Shown in pieces: positions 7,387 to 62,314 of a stretch of DNA of 64,000 bases. Below the pieces are notes generated by a model that saw only the letters and a list, made by a program, of their open reading frames with translations, was not told the origin of the DNA and searched no databases. Made by a program: the position numbers and the translations under genes. The stretch's first letter is position 1, and every line of letters starts with the position of its first letter. The stretch is from a virus: IMG/VR virus record IMGVR_UViG_3300021378_000004. One strand, written 5' to 3'.

Positions 7387-8349
7387 ATGTCAATTGATTA
7401 TAAAAGTAAAAGAAGATTTAAATCTTTTCAAAATAGAAAAGTAAGAGAAGCGCTACCTGAGTTTTATACTTCTGAATTTCCGACTTTAGTTACATTTCTA
7501 GAAAAATATTACAATTTTATAGATTCTGCTGATGGGACGCATGCCTTTGGAAGCAACGCCCAGCAGTTTTTTGCTAAAAAAGATATAAAAGAAATGCCAG
7601 CAAACTTACTTAATAATTTAGTTAGTGAGTTAGGTGGCGGTTTAAAAACAGGAGAAAATTTTACTGATACACGTTATGCTTTAACTAGACTAGCCGATCT
7701 TGCAAAACTAAAAGGCAGCAGATTCTCATTAGAAGAATTTTTTAGATTATTCTTTCAGCAAAAAGCTGAAGTTGAATATGGTAAAGAATCTATGTTTCTT
7801 ATTGGAGATTCAGCAAGTCAAATTGGAGTTGATTCAATAAAATTTATACAAAATAATGAACTCTTTCAAACTTTTGGGCTATTAATAAAATCAGAAATAT
7901 CTGTAGATACATGGAGTGAGCTTTATAAAAAGTTTGTTCATCCATCTGGTTTCTTTTTTGCAGGACAAGTTGTTTCTGATACTGAAGCTATAACTTCTCC
8001 AATTGGAGAAATATCAATACCAGATTCTGCAGCTGATCCTGTAATAATATCAGAAGCAATATTATCTGCAACGTTACCGTTTGTGCAATCAACTGTATTA
8101 ATTGATTCAGGTGGAGGTACAGTGAGATCTAATCTAAACGAGGTTGTGAGTGATTATCAAGACTTTACTTTAGCGCAATTAGATACAACTTATCATTCAG
8201 TCAAACAAGTTATAACACCTAATTCATTTACTTTTGATGACAGCAGTATTAGAGATAGCGATGAAAATGCAACTCCAGACTTCTCAATGACATTAGAAAC
8301 TATGGATAATCAAATATTTACAAGGCGTGTAACTGACTCGTCTTTCTAG
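7387..8349 (+). CDS. gp7: Baseplate wedge subunit, short gp7-like
   Basis: LPEFY..LVTFLEKYY, KGSRFSLEEFFRLFF and YKKFVHPSGFFFAG motifs; follows gp6. Confidence 0.7.
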   Translation: MSIDYKSKRRFKSFQNRKVREALPEFYTSEFPTLVTFLEKYYNFIDSADGTHAFGSNAQQFFAKKDIKEMPANLLNNLVSELGGGLKTGENFTDTRYALTRLADLAKLKGSRFSLEEFFRLFFQQKAEVEYGKESMFLIGDSASQIGVDSIKFIQNNELFQTFGLLIKSEISVDTWSELYKKFVHPSGFFFAGQVVSDTEAITSPIGEISIPDSAADPVIISEAILSATLPFVQSTVLIDSGGGTVRSNLNEVVSDYQDFTLAQLDTTYHSVKQVITPNSFTFDDSSIRDSDENATPDFSMTLETMDNQIFTRRVTDSSF

Positions 8350-8357
8350 TATAAATA
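8350..8357 (+). promoter_or_regulatory. T4-type late promoter
   Basis: Exact TATAAATA immediately after the gp7-like stop. Confidence 0.8.
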
Positions 8358-8378
8358 ACACTATAAGTAGGATAGCAA

Positions 8379-9320
8379 ATGACAAGACAAAATATAAACA
8401 TAGGTTCTTCAGCTAACGATGGAACAGGCGACACTTTACGTTCTGCAGGAACTAAGATAAATGCTAATTTTCAAGAAATTTATACACAACTTGGAGGAAA
8501 TAGCTCTACGCTTAGTGAATTAGTTAAATTAAAAGATTCAGCTACTATTGGTACTATACAATTTGAAGGAACAAGCGCAGACTCTCATGAAACAAAATTG
8601 ATTGCAACTAATCCTACTGCAGATAGAACAATTTCTTTGCCAAATGCAACTGGTACAATTATTTTACAAAATACTACAGACACTTTAACAAATAAAACTT
8701 TAACCACACCAACAATAGCATCTATAATAAATGGCGGTACAGTTACAATCCCTTCTGGTGCAGATACTTTAGTTGCTAGAACTTCAACAGACACTTTAAC
8801 AAATAAAACTTTAACCACACCAACTATAAATTCACCTATAATTGGCACTGCAATAAATGATGCAAATGGAAACGAAATTATAAAAATAACTGCAAACTCA
8901 AATGCTGTAAATGAGATAACAATTGCAAATGGTGCATCAATAACAGGTCCTACAATATCAGCAACAGGCAATGGAACAAATTTAAATTTACGTCTTGCAT
9001 CAAAGGGAACTGGATCTGTTAGTTTATCAAAAGCTTCTTTTACATCAGCTACAATTACAGCAAATGGTGCAGCAAATAGTGGTGTAACATACATAATAGG
9101 AAATAAAGGTTCAGCTCTTGCTGTAAGTTTAGCGGATGGAACCACTGTTGGAGAATATAAAATATTTACAAATAAAGGAGCAGGTGTAATGACTGTAACT
9201 CCTTCAAATTTTTCACAAGGAACAACGTTTGCACTTGCACAAAATGATGGATGTACTTGTATATGGGACGGGTCAAACTGGTTTCTTATAGGTAATCAAG
9301 GCGAAGTGACAGTAGCATAA
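8379..9320 (+). CDS. Baseplate/tail-fibre connector with gp9/gp10-type N-terminus
   Basis: MTRQNINIGSSANDGTGDTLRSAGTKINANFQEIY is the gp9/gp10 N-terminal motif; contains TDTLTNKTLT repeats. Confidence 0.75.
   Translation: MTRQNINIGSSANDGTGDTLRSAGTKINANFQEIYTQLGGNSSTLSELVKLKDSATIGTIQFEGTSADSHETKLIATNPTADRTISLPNATGTIILQNTTDTLTNKTLTTPTIASIINGGTVTIPSGADTLVARTSTDTLTNKTLTTPTINSPIIGTAINDANGNEIIKITANSNAVNEITIANGASITGPTISATGNGTNLNLRLASKGTGSVSLSKASFTSATITANGAANSGVTYIIGNKGSALAVSLADGTTVGEYKIFTNKGAGVMTVTPSNFSQGTTFALAQNDGCTCIWDGSNWFLIGNQGEVTVA
8676..8824 (+). repeat. 38-bp direct repeat (8676-8713, 8787-8824) encoding TDTLTNKTLTTPT
   Basis: acagacactttaacaaataaaactttaaccacaccaac occurs twice. Confidence 0.85.
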
Positions 9321-9331
9321 AGGAATAAGAT

Positions 9332-10726
9332 ATGGCAGCGATAATTACAGACTCTTTTAAGAAACAAATAGTTCAAACCGTATTTGATGAAGTTTCTTTT
9401 CCAGATTCAGCATCAACACATAGGTATTATATAGGAATAGGTAGATCCGAGCAATGGGATGATAGCGAAAACGTTCCTACAGTTACAGACGCTCCTAGAA
9501 CTATAAGAAATTTAAGAGCTGGATTACAATCAATAAAATCTGCAAGTGATGTAACTTTTACTATACCAAGATATAACTGGTCTTCTGGCGCAATATATTC
9601 AGCATATGATGATAATTTAGCATCTATTCCATTAACAAATAGCTATTACGTTCTTACTGAAGATAACCAAGTATATGTGTGTTTACAGCAAGGAAAATCA
9701 TCAACTGGTGTATCAACTACTTCCACAGTTAAGCCAACAGGAACATCTATAAAAGCTTTTAAAACTGCAGATGGTTATGTTTGGAAGTTTTTATATACAT
9801 TAAGTGCGTCAAGAGCAAATAAATTTCTCTCAGCAAATTTTGTGCCAGTTGAAAAAATATTAGATTCAGCTACACTAGGAAGACCTCATACAGTTTTAGA
9901 AAATCAACAACTTTTAATACAAAATGCAGGTGTTCCTGGCCAAATTATTGGTATTAATGTGACAAACGGCGGATCAGGATATACTGGTGCACCTATTGTA
10001 AGTATACATGGCGATGGTGTTAGAGCATCAGCAACTGCAATAGTATCAGGTGGAGCAGTTACAAAGATAGAATTAGATTCAAGTGCTGATAGCGGCCTTA
10101 CAATGGGTCAAGGATATAACTTTGCTAGTGTTACAATAGCAGCTCCTAGTGGATCTGGAATTATTGCTACAGCACGCGCAATATTAGGACCAGATAGTGG
10201 AATGGGCAATGATCCAAGAGATGAATTGAAATCAACATCATTAATGTTTAATACAAAACCAAATGGAATTGAGGATAGCAATTTTATAGTAGGTCAAAAT
10301 TTTAGACAAGTTGCTTTAATAAGAGATCCTAAAAAACCTACTACAGACTCTGATTTTTCTAATTCAAGTGGTAAAGTTTTAAGATTTTTAAAATTGCAAG
10401 CTACAGCAAATACTGGCTTTTTAAATGCAACAATAACAGGTGGAACCTCTGGAGCTAAAGCTTTAGTTGATGAAGTTGCTGGTGATAAATTATATTTTCA
10501 TCAAACAGAAGATACTGGATTTTTAGATTTTCAAGAAGAAGAAGGTATTGCTGGTGGTGGTCAAACTGGCACACTTATTGCAGAAGGAACTGACGCAGAC
10601 TCTGATGCATTTACACGAGACGACGTTAACAAGCTTTCCGGAAAAGTACTATATATAGAAAATAGAGCACCAGTAACTCGATCAGCTAATCAAACAGAAG
10701 ATATAAAAGTTGTGATAACACTTTAA
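9332..10726 (+). CDS. gp8: Baseplate wedge subunit gp8
   Basis: IPRYNWSSG..YYVLTEDNQVYVCL..DGYVWKFLY..SGKVLYIENRAPVTRSANQTEDIKVVI. Confidence 0.92.
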   Translation: MAAIITDSFKKQIVQTVFDEVSFPDSASTHRYYIGIGRSEQWDDSENVPTVTDAPRTIRNLRAGLQSIKSASDVTFTIPRYNWSSGAIYSAYDDNLASIPLTNSYYVLTEDNQVYVCLQQGKSSTGVSTTSTVKPTGTSIKAFKTADGYVWKFLYTLSASRANKFLSANFVPVEKILDSATLGRPHTVLENQQLLIQNAGVPGQIIGINVTNGGSGYTGAPIVSIHGDGVRASATAIVSGGAVTKIELDSSADSGLTMGQGYNFASVTIAAPSGSGIIATARAILGPDSGMGNDPRDELKSTSLMFNTKPNGIEDSNFIVGQNFRQVALIRDPKKPTTDSDFSNSSGKVLRFLKLQATANTGFLNATITGGTSGAKALVDEVAGDKLYFHQTEDTGFLDFQEEEGIAGGGQTGTLIAEGTDADSDAFTRDDVNKLSGKVLYIENRAPVTRSANQTEDIKVVITL

Positions 10727-10737: not shown

Positions 10738-13700
10738 ATGGCTACTACACTTACAAATTCAGTCTTTAATACAACTTATAAAGATGATTTTGCTGACAGC
10801 GCAGGATTTCATAAGATACTATTTAATTCAGGTAAGGCATTGCAGGCTCGTGAGTTAACTCAGCTTCAAACAATTTTACAAAATCAAATACAAAAATTTG
10901 GAAATAATGTATTTAAAGAAGGCGCTGTTGTTAAGCCCGGTGGCGCTAATTTAAATTCGCAATACGAATTTATAAAATTAAATACAACTATTAATACTCT
11001 TCCTGCTAATACTTCTACTATAACAACACCAGCAAGTAGTGCAAATATTTTTACAGGTGATACATCTAGTATTCAAGTTAAAGTCTTACAAGTAGTTACT
11101 GCTGCTGGTTCCGATCCCGATACTTTATATATTCAATATATGAATACGTCATCTGCTTCTTCAGGCGCAAATACACCTAGATTAACACCAGGCGAAAATA
11201 TAACTAATGGAACTGTAACGTTAACAGTTCAAACTACAAATACTTTGGATAATCCAGCAGTTGGTGTTGGTATACTTGCAACTTTATTATCTGGAATATA
11301 CTATGCAAGAGGACACTTTGTTTTTACTGAAGATCAATCAAAAATTATTTCAAAGTATAGTGATGTTAAAACAACAAATATAGGATTTAAAGCAATAGAG
11401 GATATTGTTTCTTCTATAGATGATGAAAGCTTATTTGATAATCAAGGTGCAGCTCCTAACTTAGCAGCTTCAGGCGCGGATAGATATAGAATTAAATTAA
11501 CAGTAGTTGAAGAAAGCGATGTTGATTCCGACGAAAATTTTATTCACGTAGCTACTGTAAAACAAGGTGCCATTTTCAACGCAGTAGATACAAATAACTC
11601 ATATAATATACCTAATGAAGTTATGGCAAAAAGAATTTTCGAAAATTCTGGTGATTATATTGTAAAACCGTATACTGTAGACTTTTCTTTAGATTCAGTG
11701 TCTACTCATCTAACATTAAATGTAAGTTCCGGCACAGCTGTTGTTGATGGGTTTAGAGCTCATAGAAGTTTTCCTACAACAATAAGAATTCAAAAACCAA
11801 CAGAAACAATAAGTTTAAATAACGATGTAATTGGTATCAACTACGGAAATTCTGTAATTGTAGATCCCAATACTGATTCTGCAACACGCGGTTTACCAAA
11901 CATAAATGTTTTTGAAAAGCTTACTTTAAAAGATAATTTAGACTTCACTGGTAATGACTTAGGGACTGTAAGAGTAAAAGCTATTAATGAAGATGGCTCA
12001 AATTTTAGATATCATTTATTTGATTTACAATTAAATTCTGGTTCTGCTTTTCGAAATGTTAAAAGTATTGGAACGAGTACTTCAAGCTATTTCAGACCTA
12101 CTTTAGAAAGCACAAAAGCTGTTTTAAAAGATGCGCAAAATAATACTTCTTTATTTAAACTAACGAGATTTAGACCTAAAGCATTAACAGATATTTCATT
12201 TGCAGCACAAAGAAGATTTACAGTAACTTCAAATGGTGCAGGTGAAGCTACAATAAGTGTTACAGCAGATGGTGAAACGTTTACAAATACAGACGATTGG
12301 GTAGTGGCTAAACAAGATAGTGATATATTCATTGGTGCTACAGCAAGCGGTGCTGGATCTACAGCTTCAACAATAACTGGCTTACCTGTTAGCAGCAGTT
12401 TAGAAATATTAGCTTATGTAAATAAAAGTCAAGCTTCTACAAAACAAAAAACATTAAATAATAAATCAATTACTATTAGTGTTGATAGTGACGGAAACGG
12501 CCTTAGAGTTATACCTCTTGCAACTGCTGATATTTTTGAAATAGATGAAGTGTTAAAAGAAAATGATAGTAGTGTTAGTTACGCTGATAGATTTGTTCTT
12601 GATAATGGCCAACGCGATAATTTCTATGGCCTTGGACGACTAATACTTAGAGGTGGACAATCTGCTCCAACAACAAATGTACATGTTAAATTTAAACATT
12701 TTACACATCAACCAGACGGCGATTTTTTTGCAGTAAACTCATACGCTGGTCAAGTAGATTATAATAGAATACCGAAATACAGATTTAGTAATGGTAAAGT
12801 CATAAATTTAAGAGACTACGCTGATTTTAGGCCAGTTATGGATTCTGGAGGAGAGTTTGTAGGAACTGCTGCTAGAGTAATTGAACAACCTCAAAATGGA
12901 ACTTTAGTTACTGCCGATGCAGAATATTATTTAAATAGAGCATCTAAATTAGTAGTTGATAGAGAAGGCGTTATTAGACTTATAAATGGAATACCGTCGT
13001 TTAATCCAGCCATACCAGAAAAACCAGATCAAACATTAGCGCTATATGATCTCATATTGCGTGGTAATACTGACGATGATTCTGATGTTACAGTAACAAA
13101 GATAGAGCATAAAAGATTTACTATGAAAGATATTGCTCAGCTTGAAAAAAGATTAGCAAATCTTGAAGAAGTTACTTCATTAAGTTTACTTGAAGTTGAT
13201 ACAAAGCATTTACAAGTTTTAGATTCTGCAGGTAATAATAGAACGAAGTCAGGATTTATAGTTGATAATTTTGCTGATCATTCTAAATCACATACGCTAG
13301 GCGGATACAGAGCAGCAATAGATCCTTTACAGCAAGAGCTTAGACCAAGTTTTAAAGAAGATAACATAAGACTTATATATGATTCAGCTTCATCTACAAA
13401 TACAATAAAAAAAGGTGATAACGTTTATATAGCTTACGACGAAACACCATATATCAATCAAAATTTTGCTAGTAAGGCTATTAAACTTAATCCATTTGCT
13501 GTAATAATATACGATGGCACAACTACTTTATCACCGTCATCAGATGAATGGAGAGATGTTGATAGAAGACAAGATAAAATAATACAAGGCGGCACAAGAT
13601 TATCAACTGTGAATGCTTATAATTGGAATAATTGGTCTTGGAGTTGGGGTGGAGTTTCTCTTGAAAATTTACAAGTAGGTTTTTCTACAAATGTTCAATC

Positions 13701-14460
13701 TGGCGTTGTAAATAGAATTGTTAGTGAAGAAACTGTTTTAGATTTAGTTGAAGATAGAGTTTTACAAACTGCATTTTTACCATTTATGAGAGCTAGAAAA
13801 GTTTTCTTTAAAGTTCAAGGATTAAGACCAAATACTCGAGTATTTCCTTTTTTAGATGGAAACAATATATCAGATTTTACAAGATCTGAAACATTTCAAT
13901 TCTATTCTGATACTAATATTGATTTCGGAAACACACTTAAAAACACAACTGCTCATCCAGATGGTTCAAGCAATTTGATCACTGATGCTAACGGCGATGT
14001 ATCAGGATCATTTATAGTTCCTAACAATGATACTTTAAAAATAAGAGTCGGTACTAAAGAATTTAAGATAATGGATATTAGTGCTGATAACGAAAAAAAT
14101 GCAGGTTGTATTGCAAAAGCGCCGTATTCAGCTGCAGGACTTTTAGACACAAAAGAAGCAACTTATTCTAGCACTAGACAATTAAATGTAACAAGTGTAA
14201 ACGTTCGAACTGCTTCAGTTTATCAAGGAGATGACGGCGGCGGTGGTGGCCCAACTCACGGCAGTGGAACAAAAGGCTCTTGGACAACTGGCCCAGAAGC
14301 ATTTGGAATTAGTCATAATCAGCAAGGTTATTCTTTCTCTGATGACGCTCAAGCAACTGACACTGGGTATGGAGCAGGTGATGATCCTACTGGTAATTCA
14401 GATGGTGGAAGTGACAATAGCGGAGGTGGAAATGCTAGTGATATGGGCGATGCAACATAA
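10738..14460 (+). CDS. Large virion structural protein, VrlC/DUF4815-like (N-terminal part)
   Basis: YKDDF..ILFNSGKALQARELTQLQTILQNQI; RFTMKDIAQLEKRL..LSLLE; KSGFIVDNF; PFMRAR motifs. Usual position after gp8 in marine T4-like phages. Confidence 0.85.
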   Translation: MATTLTNSVFNTTYKDDFADSAGFHKILFNSGKALQARELTQLQTILQNQIQKFGNNVFKEGAVVKPGGANLNSQYEFIKLNTTINTLPANTSTITTPASSANIFTGDTSSIQVKVLQVVTAAGSDPDTLYIQYMNTSSASSGANTPRLTPGENITNGTVTLTVQTTNTLDNPAVGVGILATLLSGIYYARGHFVFTEDQSKIISKYSDVKTTNIGFKAIEDIVSSIDDESLFDNQGAAPNLAASGADRYRIKLTVVEESDVDSDENFIHVATVKQGAIFNAVDTNNSYNIPNEVMAKRIFENSGDYIVKPYTVDFSLDSVSTHLTLNVSSGTAVVDGFRAHRSFPTTIRIQKPTETISLNNDVIGINYGNSVIVDPNTDSATRGLPNINVFEKLTLKDNLDFTGNDLGTVRVKAINEDGSNFRYHLFDLQLNSGSAFRNVKSIGTSTSSYFRPTLESTKAVLKDAQNNTSLFKLTRFRPKALTDISFAAQRRFTVTSNGAGEATISVTADGETFTNTDDWVVAKQDSDIFIGATASGAGSTASTITGLPVSSSLEILAYVNKSQASTKQKTLNNKSITISVDSDGNGLRVIPLATADIFEIDEVLKENDSSVSYADRFVLDNGQRDNFYGLGRLILRGGQSAPTTNVHVKFKHFTHQPDGDFFAVNSYAGQVDYNRIPKYRFSNGKVINLRDYADFRPVMDSGGEFVGTAARVIEQPQNGTLVTADAEYYLNRASKLVVDREGVIRLINGIPSFNPAIPEKPDQTLALYDLILRGNTDDDSDVTVTKIEHKRFTMKDIAQLEKRLANLEEVTSLSLLEVDTKHLQVLDSAGNNRTKSGFIVDNFADHSKSHTLGGYRAAIDPLQQELRPSFKEDNIRLIYDSASSTNTIKKGDNVYIAYDETPYINQNFASKAIKLNPFAVIIYDGTTTLSPSSDEWRDVDRRQDKIIQGGTRLSTVNAYNWNNWSWSWGGVSLENLQVGFSTNVQSGVVNRIVSEETVLDLVEDRVLQTAFLPFMRARKVFFKVQGLRPNTRVFPFLDGNNISDFTRSETFQFYSDTNIDFGNTLKNTTAHPDGSSNLITDANGDVSGSFIVPNNDTLKIRVGTKEFKIMDISADNEKNAGCIAKAPYSAAGLLDTKEATYSSTRQLNVTSVNVRTASVYQGDDGGGGGPTHGSGTKGSWTTGPEAFGISHNQQGYSFSDDAQATDTGYGAGDDPTGNSDGGSDNSGGGNASDMGDAT

Positions 14461-14478
14461 AATTTTAGGAGATATAAT

Positions 14479-16059
14479 ATGGCAGTAACTTCACTAGGTT
14501 ACAAAGCAAATAAACAACCAATAGCTCAATCGTTCTATATTGATGCGCCTAATGGAATATATTGTACAAAGGTTGATTTGTTTTTTAGTGCAAAAGATAG
14601 CACTTTACCAGTTCAATTACACTTAAGGCCAATGGTTCAAGGTTTTCCATCAGCAAGTGAAATAATTCCAGGATCACAAGTGACATTAGCTAGTTCTAGT
14701 ATAAACGTTGATACAGTCGGGCCAGACTTAAATGCAACTTCATTTGCATTTGATGAACCTATTTTTTTAAAAGGTAAAGAAGATTATGCTCTTGTAGTAA
14801 CAGCAGATTCAAAAGATTATGAAATATACATAGCTGAGATTAATGAATTTACTTTTGGTTCTACTGAAAGAAGAGTTAATAAAAATCCAATTACTGGAAG
14901 TTTGTTTTATTCTCAAAACTCTGCTACTTTTACGCCTTCTCAAAATCAAGACTTAGCTTTTGTTTTACATCAAGCAAAATTTAAGCATACTACTGCAAAT
15001 GTTATTTTACACAACGCTTCTGTTTCAAAAAGAAAGTTAAACAACAATGCTTTAAAAACAACTTCAGGAAGTCAAACTGTAACAGTTAATCATTTAAATC
15101 ATGGTTTAGAAGTTGGTAATAAGGTTACTATATCTGGTGCTACCGCTGGTGGTGGAATGTTAGCTTCATCAATAAATGGAGCTAGAACAGTGGTTGCAAA
15201 GGATTTTACTGGATATACTTTTAATGCAGATTCTGCAGCTGATTCTGATGCTATAGCTGGAGGCGCAAATATACTAGCAGATAGAAACATACCATATAGT
15301 TTAATATATCCAAACATACAACTGCTAAAACCTAAAGATACGTTTATTGATGCTGGAATGAAAGCCGTGACTGGGAAGTCATTTGCAGGTGATGAACCAG
15401 CATTTCAAAAAGCTTCTACCTTTGAAGGAATTCAAATAAATCAAAACAATGCTGCTTCTAAAGTTTATTTAATTGCTCACGATTCTGCTGAAATTGCAGA
15501 ACTAGAAGCTGGGGAAAAATCACTTGACGTTCAACTAAATCTTAGTACTAATGATTCCAACGTTTCTCCTATGTTAGACTTACAAAGAACATCGATGTCG
15601 TTATTTAGCACGCTTATTGATAGGCAATACGATTCATCAGTAACATCACCTGGAGAATTCAATGCTCCACTTAATTTTGTTAATGAAACTTCACCTACTA
15701 CAGGAAGTTCAGCGGCAAGGCACATTACTAAAGTTTATTCTTTGCAAACTGACGCAGTAGGTCTTAAAGTATTAATTGATGCCAACGTTCCAGATGCAGC
15801 AGACTTTCAGTTGTATTTTAGAACTGCGTCAGCTGACGAAAATATTTTTACTAAAAATTACACGCTACAGACTTCTGATAATATTTTACCAAAAGATAAT
15901 AATCCTAATGTATTTAGAGGATACGAATTTTTAATTGGTGGTCAAGGCGGATCAATGGTTGCTTTTACAAAGCTTCAATTAAAAATAGTAATGAGAAGTA
16001 CAAATCAGGCTATAGTTCCTAGATTTAGAGCGCTTAGAATAATAGCATTGAGTGTATAA
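14479..16059 (+). CDS. Virion structural protein, VrlC/DUF4815-like C-terminal part
   Basis: PIAQSFYID..GIYCTKVDLFF..KD; GSLFYSQNSATFT..QDLAF; C-terminal VPRFRALRIIAL. Has its own AGGAG RBS. Confidence 0.8.
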   Translation: MAVTSLGYKANKQPIAQSFYIDAPNGIYCTKVDLFFSAKDSTLPVQLHLRPMVQGFPSASEIIPGSQVTLASSSINVDTVGPDLNATSFAFDEPIFLKGKEDYALVVTADSKDYEIYIAEINEFTFGSTERRVNKNPITGSLFYSQNSATFTPSQNQDLAFVLHQAKFKHTTANVILHNASVSKRKLNNNALKTTSGSQTVTVNHLNHGLEVGNKVTISGATAGGGMLASSINGARTVVAKDFTGYTFNADSAADSDAIAGGANILADRNIPYSLIYPNIQLLKPKDTFIDAGMKAVTGKSFAGDEPAFQKASTFEGIQINQNNAASKVYLIAHDSAEIAELEAGEKSLDVQLNLSTNDSNVSPMLDLQRTSMSLFSTLIDRQYDSSVTSPGEFNAPLNFVNETSPTTGSSAARHITKVYSLQTDAVGLKVLIDANVPDAADFQLYFRTASADENIFTKNYTLQTSDNILPKDNNPNVFRGYEFLIGGQGGSMVAFTKLQLKIVMRSTNQAIVPRFRALRIIALSV

Positions 16060-16268
16060 TGGCTTTACTTAAGGTTGAAGGCCATACTGATTATTTAAAA
16101 GACACAAATACTGGTGTAGTACATAATAATAACACTAGTGAAATTGAAGCAGCTCGTATGAGAAAAACTCAAAAAAAGCAACAGCAAGAGGATATAAATA
16201 ACCTTAAGAACGAAGTTAATGATATAAAAAAAATGTTAACACAAATTGTAGAGAAATTAAATGGCTAA
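16059..16268 (+). CDS. Small conserved coiled-coil protein of T4-like phages
   Basis: KVEGH..KDTNTGVV..INNLKNEVNDIKKMLTQI; translationally coupled to both neighbours. Confidence 0.7.
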   Translation: MALLKVEGHTDYLKDTNTGVVHNNNTSEIEAARMRKTQKKQQQEDINNLKNEVNDIKKMLTQIVEKLNG

Positions 16269-16887
16269 AACTATAATAAACTTATCTGATCCAGTATCAA
16301 CATTAGTTTCTAAAACTAATATAATATCAAGCCACTTAGGTGATATAACTCAATTACAAGTACCGGCAAACGCGGATTCTGATATAGTACAAGCAATAAA
16401 TCACGTTTTTGCAAATAGCACTGATTCTGGTGTCATCACTGGACTTGTTGATTCTGCTTACATACAAGCAAGACAAAGTCCTGCAACTTCGCGTGATACT
16501 GTATTGCCGTTTTTTATAAAAGATAGTGCAAATGGTATAGGTCTTGATTCTTCGGAAGGAAGATTCTTTATTCCTAGTAACACTGTTAGTACATCAATGA
16601 TTGAATCTACTGCAATTACAACAGCAAAAATTGCTGGTGACGCTGTTGATGGAACAAAAATTGCCGATGACACTATCAATTCTGAACATTATGTTGATGG
16701 TTCAATTGATACTCAACATATTGGTGACTTACAAGTAACAACTGCAAAAATTGCAGATGATAACATAACTGAAGATAAAATGGCTAATGATGCTGTAGGA
16801 TCCGCTGAATTAAAATCATTATCCACGTTGTTAATTAAAGATGTTAATGGAACTACGTTGAAAACTATTCACGGCGCTGGAGCTTAA
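16261..16887 (+). CDS. Short fibre/fibritin-like virion protein
   Basis: N-terminal KTN..LGD..DIVQAIN motif and ~10-aa [AV]TTAKIADD repeats. Confidence 0.6.
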   Translation: MAKTIINLSDPVSTLVSKTNIISSHLGDITQLQVPANADSDIVQAINHVFANSTDSGVITGLVDSAYIQARQSPATSRDTVLPFFIKDSANGIGLDSSEGRFFIPSNTVSTSMIESTAITTAKIAGDAVDGTKIADDTINSEHYVDGSIDTQHIGDLQVTTAKIADDNITEDKMANDAVGSAELKSLSTLLIKDVNGTTLKTIHGAGA

Positions 16888-16890: not shown

Positions 16891-17910
16891 ATGGTGGATA
16901 TAGTTCTTAAACAAACATCTTCAGGCGGTGTTATTCAGGAGATGGACTCTTCTGATAAAGACTATATTGAGCATACAATTCTTACAGATTTTTATAGCTC
17001 TGATACTGGTGTAGGCACAATAAGTGTAAATCCAACAGATACTACTGGTTTAACTTTAATTGGTTCATTTGTTGATACAAAACGCCCAGCTGCAGTAGGT
17101 GCTCATCCTGTTGGAACAAATGTGACAACCGTAACTACTTATAATTTTTATCAAGATCTAGGAACAGCAACTGAAAGCATAACAAATGCAACTAGGCCAG
17201 TTGCTCTTGACAGTTTAGCAGATATTCAACGAATGTCTGATTCAGAGACAAATGATGATTTTGTTTTTTCCACACAACAAAACTTAGTAGCTAGCGGAGT
17301 TGGTAGCTATAAGCTTCAGCCTTCAGCACCTACAGACGGAACATGGGTAGAAAAAGCAGCTATAGTAGATTCATTGCAAAGTACATCAAATACAATTAAA
17401 CTTTGGAGAAAATCTGCACCAGCAACTGCACCTACTGTTGTAAGACCTTTAAAATTTGTAGCTGGTTCTGGTTCATTAAGAGAATTAACAAATACTGAAA
17501 TTAATAAATTCACGCCAAGGCTAAGAAATAGAATAGTTGCAAACGGAATAGGGCAATATAGATTACAAACAGCAGCGCCTTCTGATGCCGGCACATGGAT
17601 TCAAGTAGGATCTGATATTATTGATACTAGACATCAAGTAAGCAATCAAAATTATACTGGATTTTTTACTAATACATTTTCAAATACATTTAGTAATACA
17701 TTTACTGGATATTATAGTGGAACCTATAACAGATATGCTTCGTTTAGTGGAGCTTTCCAAGGAAGTTTTTCCGGAAGTAGAGCAAAAAACTTTACTGGAT
17801 ATTTCACAGGCACTTTTACAGGCACTTTCACAGCCACTTTCACAGGATTAACAGTACAAAGTTCAACTGAAAACGTAACTACTAAAAAATTGTGGATAAG
17901 AGTAGCTTAA
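16891..17910 (+). CDS. Putative virion protein with three internal domain repeats and a [FY]-[TS]-[GN]-x tetrapeptide tract
   Basis: Repeated GVG/GIG..DT..KLW modules; tract YTGFFTNTFSNTFSNTFTGYYSG..FTGYFTGTFTGTFTATFTG. Confidence 0.6.
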   Translation: MVDIVLKQTSSGGVIQEMDSSDKDYIEHTILTDFYSSDTGVGTISVNPTDTTGLTLIGSFVDTKRPAAVGAHPVGTNVTTVTTYNFYQDLGTATESITNATRPVALDSLADIQRMSDSETNDDFVFSTQQNLVASGVGSYKLQPSAPTDGTWVEKAAIVDSLQSTSNTIKLWRKSAPATAPTVVRPLKFVAGSGSLRELTNTEINKFTPRLRNRIVANGIGQYRLQTAAPSDAGTWIQVGSDIIDTRHQVSNQNYTGFFTNTFSNTFSNTFTGYYSGTYNRYASFSGAFQGSFSGSRAKNFTGYFTGTFTGTFTATFTGLTVQSSTENVTTKKLWIRVA

Positions 17911-17931: not shown

Positions 17932-18351
17932 ATGAAAAGAACTATCAAAAACCCTTATTGGGCAAATAACACAAAAAAACAAATTATATGCGAGTTTCAT
18001 TACGAAAATAGCGAAACTATAGAAACTGCTTCGATCACTAACACTGAAGAAGGAAATCCCGACTGGAAAGAAATATTTGAAACTTTCACTGTAGAAGAAA
18101 TAGATAATACTACTAAAACTTATCTGGCTGAACATATAAAAGAACGGGAAAAAAGAAGAGAGATTCATAAAGACGAGATAGAAAGAATGAAGAGCGATAC
18201 ATTATTTGATGCTAAGCTCGAAGCATTTGAAATAGAAATTATAAAAATTTCTAAGAATAGAGAATTTAAATCTCGTATAAGAAAAGCAAAAAGTATTATG
18301 GAAGTGACAGCATTAACTGCTGCACTAATTATGTTAGAAAATGAAAAATAA
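17932..18351 (+). CDS. Hypothetical protein, possibly fibre assembly chaperone-like
   Basis: ATG at 17932 with GGAG RBS at 17922-17925, preferred over TTG 17920. KNPYWANN..IICEF N-terminus resembles small proteins that follow fibre genes. Confidence 0.5.
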   Translation: MKRTIKNPYWANNTKKQIICEFHYENSETIETASITNTEEGNPDWKEIFETFTVEEIDNTTKTYLAEHIKEREKRREIHKDEIERMKSDTLFDAKLEAFEIEIIKISKNREFKSRIRKAKSIMEVTALTAALIMLENEK

Positions 18352-22994: not shown

Positions 22995-23003
22995 GTATTT
23001 TAA

Positions 23004-23858: not shown

Positions 23859-23861
23859 TGT

Positions 23862-23869
23862 TATAAATA
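23862..23869 (+). promoter_or_regulatory. T4-type late promoter
   Basis: Exact intergenic TATAAATA. Confidence 0.75.
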
Positions 23870-23899
23870 GTATTAATAATTTTACTGTAGGAATAGATT

Positions 23900-52569: not shown

Positions 52570-52939
52570 TAAAAAAGATATGGAAAAATTCTTTCCTCCA
52601 GAAGAAAAGAATATCGATAATGATTACAAATATTCAAGAGACACATATTATGAGCTCGTGGAAAAAGGTAAACAGAGTTTAGAGTTAATGATTGAGGTTG
52701 CACGAGAAAGTGAACATCCTCGAGCATTTGAAGTATTATCTGGAATGATTAAAAATATTTCAGATGTAAACGATAGACTTATGGATCTTAATAAGAAAAA
52801 GAAAGAAATAGATAAAAAAGATGATATTAAAAAGGTTGCAAATACAACTAATAATCTTTTTGTTGGTTCCACCACTGAGCTTCAAAAGCTACTAAAGAAT
52901 GAATCGGAAATAGTGAATGTCACTCCAAAACCGGAATGA
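52562..52939 (+). CDS. gp16: Terminase small subunit gp16
   Basis: DYKYSR..ESEHPRAFEV..NNLFVGSTTELQKLL. Confidence 0.92.
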   Translation: MSDKKDMEKFFPPEEKNIDNDYKYSRDTYYELVEKGKQSLELMIEVARESEHPRAFEVLSGMIKNISDVNDRLMDLNKKKKEIDKKDDIKKVANTTNNLFVGSTTELQKLLKNESEIVNVTPKPE

Positions 52940-54521
52940 AAACTATCTAGGCAATCCTAATATAAAAAAAGACGGTATTACTTCTAATTTTACACAAGAA
53001 GAAGTACTTGAATATGCGAAGTGTATGAAAGATCCAGTGTATTTTGTAGAAAAATATGCAAAGATTATTTCATTAGATAAAGGTTTAGTTCCGTTTGAAT
53101 TATATCCTTATCAAAAGAAAATGTTTCAACAATTTGAAAGCGAAAGATTTAATATTGTATTAGCATGCCGACAATCTGGAAAATCTATATCAGCGTGCGG
53201 TTATTTATTATGGTTTGCATTATTTCAATCAGAAAAATCAATAGCGGTTTTAGCTAACAAAGGCGCAACTGCAAGAGAAATGTTAGCAAGAATAACAATT
53301 ATGCTTGAAAACATTCCATTCTTTTTACAACCAGGATGTAAGGCTCTTAATAAATCAAATATAGACTTTAGTAATAATAGTAGAATTATTGCTGCAGCTA
53401 CTACAGGATCTTCTATTCGTGGTCTTTCTATAAACTTATTATACTTAGATGAGTTTGCCTTTGTTGAACGTGCTGCAGAGTTTTATACATCAACGTATCC
53501 AGTTGTATCTTCTGGTGGTGATACAAAAATTATAGTAACATCTACAGCCAATGGTATTGGTAATACCTTTCATAAGATATGGGAAGGATCAATACAAGGC
53601 GTTAATGAATATAAAAACTTTAGAGTAGATTGGCACGATGTTCCAGGACGTGATGATAAGTGGAAAGAAGAAACTATAAACAACACATCACAAATACAAT
53701 TTGATCAAGAGTTTGGGAATACATTTTTTGGAACTGGTAACACATTAGTGAATGCTCAAACATTATTAAATTTAAGAGCTAAGCCGGCACAAAGGTATTT
53801 AGAAGGTGGAGACTGTTTAGTTTATAAAGAACCTATTAAAGGTCATGAGTATCTTTTAGTTGCTGATGTATCAAAGGGAAGAGGACAGGACTATTCTTCT
53901 TTTAGTTTGATCGATATTAACGTTCGCCCCTTTGAGCAAGTGGTTGTGTATCGCAATAATACTATCTCGCCATTACTCTTCCCTAATATTATATATAAGT
54001 ATGCGAATGTCTACAACCAAGCTTATTGCATTATTGAATCAAATGATCAAGGATCTGTTGTTTGTAATGGTTTATATTATGATTTAGAATATGAAAATGT
54101 TCATGTTGAATCTGCAGTTAAAGCCAATGCTGTTGGCGTAGATATAAATAGAAAGTCTAAAAGGCTTGGATGTAGTGCTTTAAAAGACTTACTGGAAAAT
54201 AATAAGTTAACAGTTGTAGATGAACAAACAATATTAGAAATATCAACGTTTGAAGCAAAAGGACAAACCTACCAAGCTGCAGTTGGTAATCATGACGATT
54301 TAGTTATGAATTTAGTAATGTTTGGTTATTTTGTATCTTCATCTTACTTTTCTAATTTAACTGATATTAATATTAAAGATATGATATTTAAACAAAAATT
54401 AAAAGAAATTGAAGACGATATAGTACCTTTTGGATTTATTAATGATGGTAATGAACAGGTTAAAAGAATTGAACCAGACGAAGAACATCCATGGGCTATT
54501 GAATACGATAGAAACCTGTAA
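52917..54521 (+). CDS. gp17: Terminase large subunit gp17
   Basis: Walker A RQSGKS, Walker B LLYLDEFAF, TSTANG, nuclease ADVSKGRGQDYS and HDDLVM. Confidence 0.97.
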   Translation: MSLQNRNENYLGNPNIKKDGITSNFTQEEVLEYAKCMKDPVYFVEKYAKIISLDKGLVPFELYPYQKKMFQQFESERFNIVLACRQSGKSISACGYLLWFALFQSEKSIAVLANKGATAREMLARITIMLENIPFFLQPGCKALNKSNIDFSNNSRIIAAATTGSSIRGLSINLLYLDEFAFVERAAEFYTSTYPVVSSGGDTKIIVTSTANGIGNTFHKIWEGSIQGVNEYKNFRVDWHDVPGRDDKWKEETINNTSQIQFDQEFGNTFFGTGNTLVNAQTLLNLRAKPAQRYLEGGDCLVYKEPIKGHEYLLVADVSKGRGQDYSSFSLIDINVRPFEQVVVYRNNTISPLLFPNIIYKYANVYNQAYCIIESNDQGSVVCNGLYYDLEYENVHVESAVKANAVGVDINRKSKRLGCSALKDLLENNKLTVVDEQTILEISTFEAKGQTYQAAVGNHDDLVMNLVMFGYFVSSSYFSNLTDINIKDMIFKQKLKEIEDDIVPFGFINDGNEQVKRIEPDEEHPWAIEYDRNL

Positions 54522-54590: not shown

Positions 54591-56360
54591 ATGGCACTAT
54601 CTACACCCTCCGAATCACCTGCGGTTGTTGTCAAAGAAATAGATCTGACTGGTGGCGTGCCTAATGTCCAGTCAACTACAGGCGCAATCGTAATAAATTC
54701 TAGGTGGGGACCTGTTGAAGAAAGAGTTAAAATTAGTTCAGAAGCAGAACTTGTTGATGTCTTTGGTTCACCAGATTCAGCCACCACTATCTCATTTCAT
54801 CAAGCTAATTTCTTTTTGAAATACTCTAATGCTCTTCAAACCGTAAGAGTTATAGACGGAGCTACAAAAAACGCAGTATCAACTACTGGCCAAACAGCTG
54901 CATCTACAGCTGCTGGATTGCCTACAGAAACTGTGAAAAACGAAACAGATTTTAACTCTCAAAAATCTGCACTGGATTCAGATTTGCATACGTTTGTAGC
55001 AAAATATCCAGGAGTACTTGGAAACAGTTTACAAGTTTCTTTATGTCCACATTCTGTAAGCGATTCAGCTTTTAACAATTGGTCATATAAAAATGAGTTT
55101 GATGCTGCTCCAGGAACATCAGACTTTGCTACTAAAAATAATGCAACTAATGATGAAGTTCATGTTGCAATTATTGACAAAACTGGTAAATTTACAGGCA
55201 CACAAGGAACATTGCTTGAGAGATATGCATTTAAGTCTTTAGGATCTAATGCTAAAAACACTAATGGAACCACTAACTACGTAAAAGATATTATCAATGA
55301 GAACTCAAAATATGTTTGGTTAGTTGATTTCGACTCAGACTTAAGATTATCAGGCGCTGGCACATCAATTGATAGCGGTGACAATTTCACTAAGACTACT
55401 GGCACTATAGGCGCTGACATTGATTATAATTTTAGTAAAGGCGCTGATCCTTCTTCTATAACTACTGCAAACACTTTAGTGGGTTATGATCTGTTTGAAG
55501 ATAAAGATCAAGTTGAAATTGATTTTTTAATTCCTTCTAGGCAAGGAAGTAGATCAGCTTCAACTACAGTTGTAAATGATTTAGTTGCAACTGCACAAAA
55601 TCTTAGAAAAGATTGCATAGTTGTAGCATCTCCGGCTGATGCCGATATTATCAACGTAACATCAGCTTCAGATATTGTTGCAAATGTTGTTGGAACAGCT
55701 GATACATATACTAAATCTTCTTATTTAGTTATGGACGGAAACTATTTAAAAGTTTACGATAAATACAATGATCAATATATACAAATACCTGCTAATTCTT
55801 CAACAGCTGGAATTATGGCTGCCACTGATCTAAATAGAGCTCCGTGGTTTTCACCAGCAGGTTCACGAAGAGGTCAATATCTTGGAATTACTTCAATTGC
55901 ATTTTCACCTACTAAACCACAAAGAGATACTTTGTATAAAGCTGGCGTAAACCCAATTGCAAATATACCAGGAGCAGGCGTCATACTATTTGGTGATAAA
56001 ACAAAACTTGCAAGACCTTCTGCATTTGATAGAATCAATGTTAGAAGATTGTTCTTAGTATTAGAAAGAGCAATTGGAAGAGCTGCAGAGCAAGTACTCT
56101 TTGAATTCAACGACGAATTTACAAGAGCTGAGTTTGTTAATATCGTCGAACCAGTATTACGTGAAGTAAAAGGTAGACGTGGTATTACGGATTTCAAAGT
56201 AGTTGCAGATGCTACAAATAATACACCTGCAGTTATCGATAGAAATGAGTTTATCGCAAGTATCTTCATCAAACCGGCTAGGTCCATTAACTATGTCACA
56301 CTTAACTTTGTGGCTGTAAGAACCGGCGTCGACTTTGAAGAAGTCGTTGGTACAGTTTAG
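54591..56360 (+). CDS. gp18: Tail sheath protein gp18
   Basis: SPAVVVKEIDLT..WGP; PWFSPAG; FDRINVRRLF; FIKPARSINYVTLNFVA. Confidence 0.97.
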   Translation: MALSTPSESPAVVVKEIDLTGGVPNVQSTTGAIVINSRWGPVEERVKISSEAELVDVFGSPDSATTISFHQANFFLKYSNALQTVRVIDGATKNAVSTTGQTAASTAAGLPTETVKNETDFNSQKSALDSDLHTFVAKYPGVLGNSLQVSLCPHSVSDSAFNNWSYKNEFDAAPGTSDFATKNNATNDEVHVAIIDKTGKFTGTQGTLLERYAFKSLGSNAKNTNGTTNYVKDIINENSKYVWLVDFDSDLRLSGAGTSIDSGDNFTKTTGTIGADIDYNFSKGADPSSITTANTLVGYDLFEDKDQVEIDFLIPSRQGSRSASTTVVNDLVATAQNLRKDCIVVASPADADIINVTSASDIVANVVGTADTYTKSSYLVMDGNYLKVYDKYNDQYIQIPANSSTAGIMAATDLNRAPWFSPAGSRRGQYLGITSIAFSPTKPQRDTLYKAGVNPIANIPGAGVILFGDKTKLARPSAFDRINVRRLFLVLERAIGRAAEQVLFEFNDEFTRAEFVNIVEPVLREVKGRRGITDFKVVADATNNTPAVIDRNEFIASIFIKPARSINYVTLNFVAVRTGVDFEEVVGTV

Positions 56361-59251: not shown

Positions 59252-59911
59252 ATGAAATTAATATCAGAATATGCAGAAAATAAAATAGAATTTTTAATTA
59301 CTGAAGATAAGAAAACTGGTAAAAAAAATTATGCTATTGAAGGTGTATTTGCGCAAGCAGAAACAAAGAATCGTAACGGACGTATATATCCAATGCCAGT
59401 GATGGAAAAAGCACTTGGTAAATATAATAACGATCAGGTTACTAAAGGCAGAGCAGTTGGAGAGTTAAATCATCCGGAAGGACCAACTGTTAACTTAGAT
59501 AAGGTTTCCCACAAAATCACTGAATTAAAATTTCAGGGTAATGATATTGTGGGCAAAGCATCGATACTGAACACCCCTATGGGAGAAGTTGTTAAAGGCT
59601 TACTCGATGGCGAAGTTCAATTTGGTGTATCGACTCGTGGTATGGGAAGTTTGAGCCAGCGTAATGGCGTCGCAGTCGTCAACGACGATTATATTCTAAA
59701 CGCGGTAGATATCGTGCAAGATCCATCCGCTCCTAGCGCTTTTGTTAATGGGATAATGGAAGGGGTTGAATGGGTTTGGAATAACGGCATTATAGAAGCA
59801 CAAACAATTGAAAGAATGGAGACTGAAATTAAAAAGGCTCCACGCGCTGATCTCTATGAGACACAAGTTCGTGAGTTTAAGAATTTCCTCTCGTTATTAA
59901 AATCAAAATAA
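59252..59911 (+). CDS. gp21: Prohead protease gp21
   Basis: IEGVFAQAE.KNRNGRIYP; GELNHP; GVSTRGMGSL; DIVQDPSAPSAFV. Confidence 0.97.
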   Translation: MKLISEYAENKIEFLITEDKKTGKKNYAIEGVFAQAETKNRNGRIYPMPVMEKALGKYNNDQVTKGRAVGELNHPEGPTVNLDKVSHKITELKFQGNDIVGKASILNTPMGEVVKGLLDGEVQFGVSTRGMGSLSQRNGVAVVNDDYILNAVDIVQDPSAPSAFVNGIMEGVEWVWNNGIIEAQTIERMETEIKKAPRADLYETQVREFKNFLSLLKSK

Positions 59912-59921
59912 GGAGTCAAAA

Positions 59922-60980
59922 ATGGCTGATAAAGAAATAATAGATGATCAGGATATTGAACTCCATGAAGACGAGAACGAAATCATGGAAGCTCAAGCTC
60001 ACGATCCTAAAAATGCTGAGGCACAGTCAATAGCTGCTGTCGACAAGGCAGGTGAAGCTACTGGTAGCGCCCCAAAGCGTAAAGGTGACAACACTAAACA
60101 AGATCCAATGCCAAAAACTAAAGCAGCTTTAATAGCTGGTATGGTTGGCAAAATGCAAGGTATGAATAAAGCAGATTTATCTGCTATGTTTAAAGGCGAA
60201 AATTACGTAAGTAACGATGCTGAACTTGCAGAAGAAGAAATTAAACCTACTGCAAATGTAGAAGTAGATTTCAAAGACGATCTTAAAGCACTTGTTAACG
60301 AAGAAGCTACACTGTCTGATGCATTTAAGCAAAAAGCAGAGACTATTTTCGAAGCTGCAATTAATACAAAAATAAATGTAGAGATTGATAGATTAGAAGA
60401 GAAGTACAATGAAGAACTTTCAGAAGAGATTGAAAGTACTAAAAGTGAACTTGTGGAAAAAGTAGACAGTTACCTTAACTACGTAGTTGAAGGCTGGATG
60501 GAAGACAACAAGTTAGCAATCCAAAATGGTTTAAGAACTGAAATTGCTGAAGACTTTATGAATAAGTTAAAAGACTTATTTACTGAATCTCACATTCAGG
60601 TGCCAGAGGATAAAGTTGACATTGTTGACGAACTCGCAGACAACGTTGATGAGCTTGAGGCAAAACTCAATGAATCAACTGAAAAGTCTATTCACATGGC
60701 TGAAGAGTTAGAGCTATATAAAAGGGAGTCTATCATTAGAGAGGCAACTAAAGATTTAGCAGAAACTCAAGTTGAAAAGCTAAAAGATTTAGCAGAAAAC
60801 GTTGATTTTGACGACGAAGAAACTTTTGCACAAAAGGTATCTCAGTTAAAAGAATCATATTTTGCTAAGACAACTAAAACCCAAGATGAGATTGTTGAAG
60901 ATGATGATGCTCCACTAGTGGAATCAACAGGTTCAATGGATCAATATCTTAAAGCAATAAAGAAAACTGCAACAAAATAA
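59922..60980 (+). CDS. gp22: Prohead scaffold protein gp22
   Basis: Acidic coiled coil; IFEAA; VDSYLNYVVEGWMEDN..GLRTEIAEDF. Confidence 0.95.
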   Translation: MADKEIIDDQDIELHEDENEIMEAQAHDPKNAEAQSIAAVDKAGEATGSAPKRKGDNTKQDPMPKTKAALIAGMVGKMQGMNKADLSAMFKGENYVSNDAELAEEEIKPTANVEVDFKDDLKALVNEEATLSDAFKQKAETIFEAAINTKINVEIDRLEEKYNEELSEEIESTKSELVEKVDSYLNYVVEGWMEDNKLAIQNGLRTEIAEDFMNKLKDLFTESHIQVPEDKVDIVDELADNVDELEAKLNESTEKSIHMAEELELYKRESIIREATKDLAETQVEKLKDLAENVDFDDEETFAQKVSQLKESYFAKTTKTQDEIVEDDDAPLVESTGSMDQYLKAIKKTATK

Positions 60981-60994
60981 ATAGGGAGTCTTAA

Positions 60995-62314
60995 ATGACA
61001 CAATCATACGATAGATTGATCGAAAAATGGGCACCAGTGCTGAACGAAGAGTCAGCTGGTACTATTGCGGATCATCATAAAAAAGCTGTAACAGCTGCAG
61101 TACTTGAGAATCAGGAAATCGCACTTAGAGAAGAAGGAATGATTACAGAAGCAGCTCCAGGAAATGCTACAGGTTCAGTAGCAAATTGGAATCCAGTATT
61201 AATTGCACTAGTAAGACGTGCTATGCCTAACTTAATGGCATATGACATCTGTGGTGTACAACCAATGTCTGGCCCAACTGGTCTTATCTTCGCAATGAAG
61301 TCAAGATACGGTGGTGGTTCAACATCAAATAGAGAAGCATTATTCAACGAAGCTGAGACTCAGTTTTCTGGTGACAGTGGTGGCACTCACGATTCTGATA
61401 ACGTATCAGGTTTAAGAGACTCACAAGGTGGCGGAACTGTTGGAACAGTCGATGACGACAGACTTACAGCTCTTGCTGCAGGTGGTATGACAACCAATGA
61501 AGCTGAGAAATTAGGTTCAACTGGAGAATCATCATTCAGAGAGATGGGATTCACTATTGAGAAAGCAACTGTGACTGCTAAGTCAAGAGCATTAAAAGCT
61601 GAATACAGCTTAGAATTAGCTCAAGACCTTAAAGCTATTCATGGTCTAGACGCTGAGACAGAATTGGCAAACATCTTGTCAACAGAAATCTTAGCTGAAA
61701 TCAATAGAGAAGTTATTAGAACTATTAACTCTCAAGCTAAAACTGGTGCTTTACAATCTAACACAGCTATTAACGGTATCTTTAATATTCAAACAGATGC
61801 TGATGGTAGATGGTCAGTTGAAAAGTTTAAAGGACTTGTATTACAAATCGAAAGAGAATGTAATAGAATTGCAATCGAGACACGTAGAGGTAAAGGAAAC
61901 TTTATCATATGTTCATCTGATGTAGCATCTGCACTTTCTGCAGCTGGTATGTTAGACTACACACCTGCAATGTCAACAAACTTAAATGTTGATGACACAG
62001 GTAACACTTTTGCTGGTGTCTTAAACGGTAGAACAAGAGTTTACATCGATCCGTATGCTGCACAAAACTATGTGACAGTTGGATATAAGGGAACTAACCC
62101 ATACGATGCTGGTCTATTCTATTGCCCATACGTTCCATTAACAATGGTACGTGCAGTTGGTGAAGATACATTCCAACCAAAAATTGGTTTTAAAACCAGA
62201 TATGGAATGGCATCTAACCCATACGTAGGTGCAACACCTGCTGATGGTCTAGCCGCAGTTAAGACTAACCAATACTACAGAATATTCAGAGTTGACAATA
62301 TTCTAGGTGCTTAG
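60995..62314 (+). CDS. gp23: Major capsid protein gp23
   Basis: LVRRAMPNLMAYDICGVQPMSGPTGLIFAM; SRALKAEYSLELAQDLKAIHGLDAE; FQPKIGFKTRYG. Confidence 0.99.
   Translation: MTQSYDRLIEKWAPVLNEESAGTIADHHKKAVTAAVLENQEIALREEGMITEAAPGNATGSVANWNPVLIALVRRAMPNLMAYDICGVQPMSGPTGLIFAMKSRYGGGSTSNREALFNEAETQFSGDSGGTHDSDNVSGLRDSQGGGTVGTVDDDRLTALAAGGMTTNEAEKLGSTGESSFREMGFTIEKATVTAKSRALKAEYSLELAQDLKAIHGLDAETELANILSTEILAEINREVIRTINSQAKTGALQSNTAINGIFNIQTDADGRWSVEKFKGLVLQIERECNRIAIETRRGKGNFIICSSDVASALSAAGMLDYTPAMSTNLNVDDTGNTFAGVLNGRTRVYIDPYAAQNYVTVGYKGTNPYDAGLFYCPYVPLTMVRAVGEDTFQPKIGFKTRYGMASNPYVGATPADGLAAVKTNQYYRIFRVDNILGA

Follow-up and report, generated by a model that had tools for sequence, protein, structure and literature searches.

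The DNA analysed here, the 64,000-nucleotide stretch of IMG/VR virus record IMGVR_UViG_3300021378_000004 (hereafter the window), is the structural module of an uncultured marine T4-like myophage (34.5% guanine plus cytosine, GC), extending from the gp5 region to uvsY. Its outer virion proteins are rich in a tripeptide in which aspartate-serine (DS) is followed by alanine, aspartate, serine or glycine, and sequence comparison indicates that this motif marks a large uncultured clade of marine T4-like phages. The reading we favour, at a probability of roughly 0.55, is that late-expressed phage enzymes would O-glycosylate virion proteins at the serine of D-S-[A/D/S/G], their acceptor motif. The D-S-[A/D/S] (DS[ADS]) feature is real, while the mechanism is probable but unproven. 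A first-pass annotation had proposed that a phage enzyme decorates the particle at DS; the likeness to a recognition site and glycosylation as the best reading have stood, whereas the cassette named there as the source of the enzyme and the analogy with Bacteroidetes have not.

Recounting confirmed the DS numbers of that annotation, with 8 in the 320-residue gp7-like protein (2.5 expected), 10 in gp8 (3.1), 8 in the product of the open reading frame (ORF) at 23004 (2.4) and 5 in that of ORF 16261 (2.3), and an 837-residue fibre protein contains 31 where 9.0 are expected. DS is the most over-represented dipeptide within the window (212 vs 135). A set of 14 non-repetitive outer proteins, chosen partly after counts were seen, was compared with 500 shuffles as the null model; DS occurred 74 times against 35.5±5.3 and DS[ADS] 49 times against 8.7±2.8, and none of the 500 shuffles was as high in either case. 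The excess is carried by DSA (22 observed/3.0 expected), DSD (19/2.6), DSS (8/3.3) and DSG (8/2.6), and DS with other residues in the +2 position is below chance. Neither DT (36 vs 36.3) nor NS (33 vs 34) is in excess in these proteins, and ES is depleted (10 vs 21). The proposed comparison with similar dipeptides accordingly singles out DS over DT and ES, but less cleanly over SD, which is itself mildly high (49 vs 35.5). The signal is the tripeptide D-S-[A/D/S(/G)] and not the plain dipeptide, and is both real and sharper than first stated.

A split of proteins by composition only (lysine, arginine and glutamate together below 13%), independent of the hand-picked set, gave 125/28 DS[ADS] in the window (4.4-fold), 2.5- to 6.2-fold in related contigs and 0.7- to 1.2-fold in the five cultured T4-like phages used for comparison (C48C1, Melnitz, HTVC008M, S-PRM1 and DLP6). 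Overall, DS[ADS] in outer proteins is about four to six times over chance. Collapsing the fibre repeats, as the annotation had suggested, brings plain DS down to chance (60 vs 59), whereas DS[ADS] stays high (41 vs 17.4±4.0). At the DNA level, GANTC is in excess only in the frame that encodes Asp-Ser (191 vs 143±11; the remaining frames are at or below chance) and serine codons at DS sites are mixed, so the signal resides in the protein and not in the DNA. A DNA motif (GANTC, HinfI/CcrM) is ruled out by this single-frame excess and by the depletion of ES.

The contrast with other proteins is less pronounced. It is true that gp17, gp21, gp19 and gp13 contain no DS, though each absence is weak singly; that of gp17 (2.0 expected) is not significant and is shared by gp17 of C48C1. 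The excess in gp18 alone (5 vs 3.7) is likewise not significant, and several virion proteins (gp6, gp25, the gp5-like protein and fibre 46276) show none. Enzymes are not clearly DS-depleted genome-wide, with pooled ratios of 408/520 = 0.78 in clade contigs and 402/475 = 0.85 in cultured phages. Across relatives the observed/expected ratio (O/E) of DS is 0.12 in gp17 (52917-54521) and 0.06 in gp21 (59252-59911); this low level may be ancestral, as C48C1 also has none.

The closest cultured phage is C48C1 (67.5% in gp23, 35.6% in gp8), followed by Melnitz, HTVC008M and cyanophages. A 147,935-bp marine metagenome contig holds the same DNA as the window, with 100% identical overlaps, and the rest of the genome was traced from contig to contig via identical proteins, the overlaps of contig L353 being 100% identical as well. 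The behaviour of individual sites was judged on 50-75 relatives per gene. DS sites sit in indel-rich stretches, where some are fixed and others are shifted by a few columns. The AlphaFold2 model of gp8 (mean predicted local distance difference test score, pLDDT, 86.8) places them in loops, in hairpin turns and at the start of two helices; a DS is present in five of the eight blocks with pLDDT under 80, and D249, D253 and S254 are invariant among 58 homologues. A DS lies inside the last 8 residues of gp7 in 50/51 relatives and of gp15 in 32/34, in free C-terminal tails where a helix cap is not possible. In the fibre repeat, neighbouring residues vary but DS persists in 58/62, 60/63 and 60/62 of the distinct contexts. 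When a site is lost, D and S disappear jointly in 59% of departures, a value possibly inflated by misalignment in loops; the corresponding values are 15% in other dipeptide columns and 20% in small polar pairs. Sites read by a shared partner would be expected to show such a pattern.

In the gp8 tree the DS-rich state marks a clade of 39 rows (support 100/100), and by this tree it is ancestral, with losses later. The C48C1 group is nested in the DS-rich clade and has lost the motif together from gp7, gp8, gp14, gp15, gp18 and gp23, while its DSD-rich fibres were kept; these six proteins hold 3-4 DS[ADS] in this subclade (2.7-4.7 expected) and 17-21 in DS-rich genomes (about 4 expected). A separate loss from the baseplate is seen in contig G021. 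Concerted loss over six non-homologous proteins appears to fit a shared cause acting in trans. The convergent gain of DS proposed earlier thus holds in so far as non-homologous surface proteins share the motif, but many of the sites were inherited throughout the clade, with the DS-rich state ancestral on the gp8 tree.

By clustering ten clade contigs against the five cultured phages, a second locus was found in the non-structural part of the genome. It consists of a gene resembling glycosyltransferase (GT) family 8, a variable block of sugar-synthesis and sugar-modifying genes, and then two GT25 genes, c50 and c49. The locus is present in the window's own genome (L353), with two GT25 matches over the cut-off plus GT-A-like genes, and in 5/5 DS-type contigs that were found via structural genes and cover the region, giving 6/6 DS-rich genomes with the window's own. 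Of 80 loci retrieved with c49, 47 have the order GT25-GT25-c50-c49 and nearly all have a GT-A gene immediately before c49. The T4 late promoter TATAAATA lies upstream of the first gene of the locus in 14/17 distinct relatives; counted at any place in the locus it reaches 38/48, close to background, and this figure was left out of account. Among about 20 contigs that carry a close c49 and reach gp8, gp8 holds 3-7 DS[ADS] where about 1 is expected, except in G021 and the partial G030. HTVC008M has no GT25-GT25-GT-A-c49 locus, apart from a c50 homologue. The GT25 pair is unlikely to be the reader of the motif, being missing from the DS-rich G016 and from the small-phage family described below. 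Nor can the c49 changes H6N/N106S explain why the C48C1 subclade lost DS, as the DS-rich G055 carries both. Inside the same locus, at L353:2461-4882, a RuBisCO-like protein (PF00016, E 5e-24) is encoded together with a nucleotidyltransferase and a methyltransferase, a gene group that may make a branched or unusual sugar.

The product of c50 resembles glycogenin-type GT-A enzymes (E about 1e-3). That of c49, encoded at L353:8001-8621, has 206 residues in a single domain and was modelled with pLDDT 90.5; its top structural match is the flagellin glycosyltransferase Maf (5mu5_A, Z 10.7, root-mean-square deviation 3.9, 166 aligned). CstI (Z 9.6), SteA (tied within about 1 Z unit), MptE (9.0) and GT29 are close, Foldseek finds CstII at E 5e-4, and two diphosphokinases, MptE and TPK, belong to the fold family as well. 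From the model, the assignment of c49 to the modified GT-A fold of Maf, GT42 and GT29 is secure as to fold family but not as to reaction. Sequence searches of c49 against PDB and PHROG gave nothing useful, and PF01973 matches weakly in 18/42 members (best E 0.0012), the window phage's own protein scoring 12.1 bits against a cut-off of 34.6. c49 has the motifs GNG, CN, CGH and YGFD and the invariant residues D46, H109 and D130; the catalytic residues of Maf are Asp324 and Glu415.

A second phage family provides the other line of evidence. Three c49 queries against 50,697 cultured phage records matched only C48C1 and DSL-LC06, a phage of 29.8 kb whose morphogenesis genes are unrelated to those of the window phage. 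In DSL-LC06 the tetrapeptide DSAG occurs 8 times (0.2 expected) in six proteins, including capsid, tail tube, hub and fibre, and is its most widespread 4-mer. Across its family DSAG is found in 30/46 capsid and 15/35 tail tube proteins and also in hub and fibre proteins, but in 0/58 terminases, 0/56 portals, 0/45 scaffolds and 0/27 tape measures, and c49 is present in 13/13 contigs covering the locus. The c49 groups of the T4-like and DSL-LC06 phages are homologous (hhalign 99.9%), and c49 is the sole enzyme family consistently present in both phage families. Distant DSL-LC06 relatives lack DSAG, on contigs too short to show whether c49 is absent. DSL-LC06 (L424) carries, at 1732-9017, a cluster of a gene with a GT9 match, two further glycosyltransferases, a KpsC-annotated gene and the c49 homologue.

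In the mechanism that we envisage for glycosylation, the core machinery would be the conserved L353 locus (the GT8-like gene, the variable sugar genes, both GT25 genes, c50 and c49), expressed late. The c49 enzyme would transfer a first sugar activated by cytidine monophosphate (CMP), either 3-deoxy-D-manno-oct-2-ulosonic acid (Kdo) or a nonulosonate, to serine in the cytoplasm; c50, GT25 and GT8 would lengthen the glycan, and the variable genes would diversify its outer sugars, resulting in a glycan-coated particle. The serine modification itself, the action of c49 before c50 and the donor sugar are what we infer from the data. Priming by c49 is the favoured step but is put forward tentatively. 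With similar caution one may speculate that D-S-[A/D/S/G] in any exposed loop is recognised by a stand-alone enzyme of Maf type, which primes the site with a CMP-sugar, for instance Kdo, that the hypervariable locus builds an outer glycan resembling lipopolysaccharide (LPS), and that the same reader and motif operate in two unrelated phage families. Since the "KpsC" of DSL-LC06 has no Pfam match, the idea of Kdo rests on the Maf literature, the GT9 match and annotation only.

Maf enzymes transfer N-acetylneuraminic acid (Neu5Ac) or Kdo to Ser/Thr of proteins and can use CMP-Kdo (10.1101/2020.06.03.131540). The model of c49 best matches the central domain of Maf flagellin glycosyltransferases (PF01973, 5mu5; related to GT42 CstI/CstII and to GT29), and of the 632 residues in the Maf chain only 271-508 are covered by the alignment. 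c49 differs in being phage-encoded, in lacking flanking domains and in scoring below the Pfam cut-off; moreover, Maf acts on flagellin, whereas the acceptor proposed here is a short motif found on many proteins. In mycobacteriophages, too, virion proteins are proposed to be decorated by glycosyltransferases that the phage encodes, with glycans placed at the C-terminal ends of the capsid and tail tube proteins (Freeman et al. 2023, as cited in PMC12619734). Here, by contrast, the putative acceptor is a three-residue motif that extends across head, neck, sheath, baseplate and fibre proteins, more than 15 in all, and is associated with another enzyme set; the gp23 sites are internal, gp19 has no DS, and terminal DS are found in gp7 and gp15.

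Several observations weigh against glycosylation by this locus. Helix starts are also a plausible reading of two gp8 sites and of the fibre repeat sites, and the glycosyltransferases of such phages have been interpreted as modifiers of host O-antigen (PMC7029224). Distant c49 homologues occur without DS excess in G046, G058, G059 and G060, where they form other deep branches, mostly without GT neighbours, and G049 and G053 have at most a weak DS excess beside c49. G021 has the whole locus yet a DS-poor baseplate (its fibres are not covered), and the C48C1 subclade retains c49 while its DS are only in fibres, mostly as DSD. Judged from this distribution, c49 looks necessary in the sample but not sufficient. 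The T4-like clade inherits motif and locus together, so the co-occurrence amounts to about two independent cases, in a sample with no complete c49-negative close relative in either family. Finally, the tie among folds and the difference in length between c49 and Maf (206 vs 632 residues) suggest that c49 may instead cap the glycan, or may be no glycosyltransferase.

It is conceivable, though rather unlikely, that DS is instead a structural or metal-binding motif (Asx/ST turns, helix caps, Ca2+/Mg2+ sites) that stabilises the particle in seawater, spread with the lineage and amplified in fibre repeats, while the GT locus serves, e.g., the host LPS. The gp8 sites, which lie in turns and in two cases (D7, D178) begin a helix, agree with this, as do the chance level of plain DS in fibres after repeat removal and the existence of several c49-positive phages without DS. 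Helix caps accept serine, threonine and asparagine, yet only 1 TS was found in 63 fibre repeat contexts, and the DS in free C-terminal tails call for another explanation. For metal binding, DS[DN]x[DN] is enriched (4 vs 0.7 expected), but the canonical calcium loop Dx[DN]xDG matches once (0.3 expected) against 74 DS sites. In four marine or soil T4-like phages the same proteins lack the motif, and local structure hardly accounts for its simultaneous disappearance from six unrelated proteins within one subclade. The strictness of the motif, its surface location and its joint and concerted losses would be accounted for equally if DS[ADS] were a non-covalent docking site for a surface ligand or for a phage-encoded protein of decoration or assembly; this is distinctly improbable, as no small structural gene that tracks the motif was noticed and c49 with DSAG in an unrelated phage family would be left unexplained.

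Other modifications of D-S are also improbable, whether beta-hydroxylation or methylation of aspartate (possibly iron-binding), phosphorylation or phosphodiester decoration of serine, or radical S-adenosylmethionine (SAM) chemistry from the window cassette. The product of ORF 19042 does resemble clusters automatically named Asp/Asn beta-hydroxylase (feature score 0.92; no common Pfam), the radical SAM and SPASM genes are late-expressed, and the fold family of c49 contains diphosphokinases. Distribution nevertheless rules out both 19042 and PF05118 as writers, since homologues of the former occur in just 4/16 DS-rich contigs, yet in G033 and G034 with their DS-poor baseplates, and the latter in 2/20; the cassette is replaced in G045, and no kinase family is prominent, by inspection only, among clade-specific clusters. 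Modification of the virion by a Bacteroidetes-type O-glycosylation system of the host, finally, is very improbable. The general motif of that system is D-(S/T)-(A/I/L/V/M/T...), extended to S/G/F/C at +2 (PMC8729774), which resembles the present one in the aspartate before the acceptor serine and in the frequency of DSA, and 6/15 bins of metagenome-assembled genomes (MAGs) with c49 contigs are Bacteroidota-like, although binning of low-GC phage DNA is unreliable. The resemblance, on which the earlier analogy was founded, goes no further: that system acts on exported proteins only, takes threonine too and favours a hydrophobic +2 residue (PMC8729774), while here only serine stands after aspartate in the motif, +2 is small or acidic (DT[AILVMT] 13/14.7, DS[ILVMT] 7/11.2, DSD 19/2.6) and the substrates would be cytoplasmic. 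T4-like structural proteins assemble in the cytoplasm. In addition, no oligosaccharyltransferase or flippase was seen in the L353 locus, unlike in the Bacteroidetes system.

Many LPS-type glycosyltransferases in marine T4-like phages have no assigned target and are usually assumed to act on the host surface; a glycan coat on the virion is an alternative, which a defined motif, a named candidate enzyme and the cultured phages C48C1 and DSL-LC06 make directly testable. If it is true, an abundant ocean phage lineage would carry serotype-like particle surfaces, with possible consequences for adsorption, aggregation, grazing and decay, and a cytoplasmic enzyme of 206 residues that glycosylates a three-residue tag would be a useful tool in protein engineering. 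No description of the motif or the locus was found in literature searches, the coverage of which is incomplete.

The cassette at 17.9-22.6 kb, in which the first-pass annotation had placed the modifying enzyme, does not follow the motif. It begins with a late trio on the plus strand (17932-19656) of weak family evidence, encoding a 139-residue protein, a GT-A-like protein with DxD (18341) and a protein resembling 2-oxoglutarate-Fe(II) (2OG-Fe(II)) oxygenases and Asp hydroxylases (19042). A variable late cassette on the minus strand follows (19648-22554), with methyltransferase-like, glycosyltransferase (phrog_1962), nitroreductase-like, radical SAM and SPASM genes, and does not track DS. Both 18341 and 19042 are absent from the DS-rich contigs G006, G044, G045 and G047 (105-142 kb; 62-84% complete) and present in C48C1, G033 and G034, all with motif-free baseplates. 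The variable cassette is absent or replaced in G004, G006, G009 and G045; G045 has a different gene set at this position and none of the cassette genes, with DS[ADS] at 87/21. In position, glycosyltransferase genes between VrlC and gp14 recall the host recognition cluster of pelagimyophages, which have further GT clusters elsewhere, but the report of that cluster describes no motif and takes the enzymes as O-antigen modifiers (PMC7029224). The late promoter TATAAATA is found at 16193, with a minus-strand copy at 22567; the latter stands back to back with a plus-strand copy at 22580. The radical SAM and SPASM genes are separate.

Upstream of the trio, a structural protein (16891-17910, plus strand) ends in aromatic-x-Gly, Thr/Ser-rich repeats, which are greatly expanded in C48C1 (3347 residues). 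The trio 17932/18341/19042 follows a protein of this family in 11/11 loci and is replaced where another protein of about 307 residues stands, which makes the 16891-family protein its probable partner. It is possible, from gene order and content, that this protein together with the GT-A-like and 2OG-Fe(II)-like genes forms a second, dedicated modification system.

The DS-bearing structural proteins described below are all encoded on the plus strand. The gp7-like baseplate wedge protein (7387-8349; PF23786, phrog_17744) has the last of its 8 DS 3 residues from the C-terminus and a family O/E of 2.75 over 51 relatives. It is followed by a gp9/10-like protein (8379-9320; faint PF07880) with 2 DS here, DS-rich in relatives (family O/E 2.34), and by the baseplate wedge gp8 (9332-10726; phrog_438; Foldseek T4 gp8 1n7z, E 5e-11) with its 10 DS. 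A DUF4815/VrlC-like pair of 1240 and 526 residues (10738-16059) has 11 and 7 DS (family O/E 1.38 and 2.09), and a short tail-fibre-like protein with PHROG fibre matches (16261-16887) has 5, including the unit DSAY[VI]QARQ. Three small fibre-associated proteins (22641-24208) contain 3, 8 and 2 DS and precede five long fibre or whisker proteins (24208-45973) with the paired repeat DS-(7)-DS-x-YVQARQ. Head closure protein gp14 and sheath stabiliser gp15 are encoded at 50478-52150, gp15 ending in DSAS and having an O/E of 2.18. As reported before, the 5 DS of the tail sheath gp18 (54591-56360) lie only in its variable N-terminal half (residues 62-261 of 589), and the 3 DS of gp23 lie within the variable insertion at 61373-61423, starting at 61373, 61391 and 61418; the first of these is kept in 20/21 relatives.

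Elsewhere in the window's genome a class II ribonucleotide reductase is encoded (L253:3942-6155), a family present in five clade contigs and in 0/5 of the compared cultured phages. A variable island (L353:13478-16365, L349:1-1008, L355:13613-16621) carries fatty-acid desaturase, TauD and Asp/Arg hydroxylase-like genes and differs among near-identical genomes. The c49-carrying phage contigs L356-L370 were binned to MAGs of many phyla (Bacteroidota, Verrucomicrobia, Actinomycetota and others), a placement that is probably due to mis-binning.

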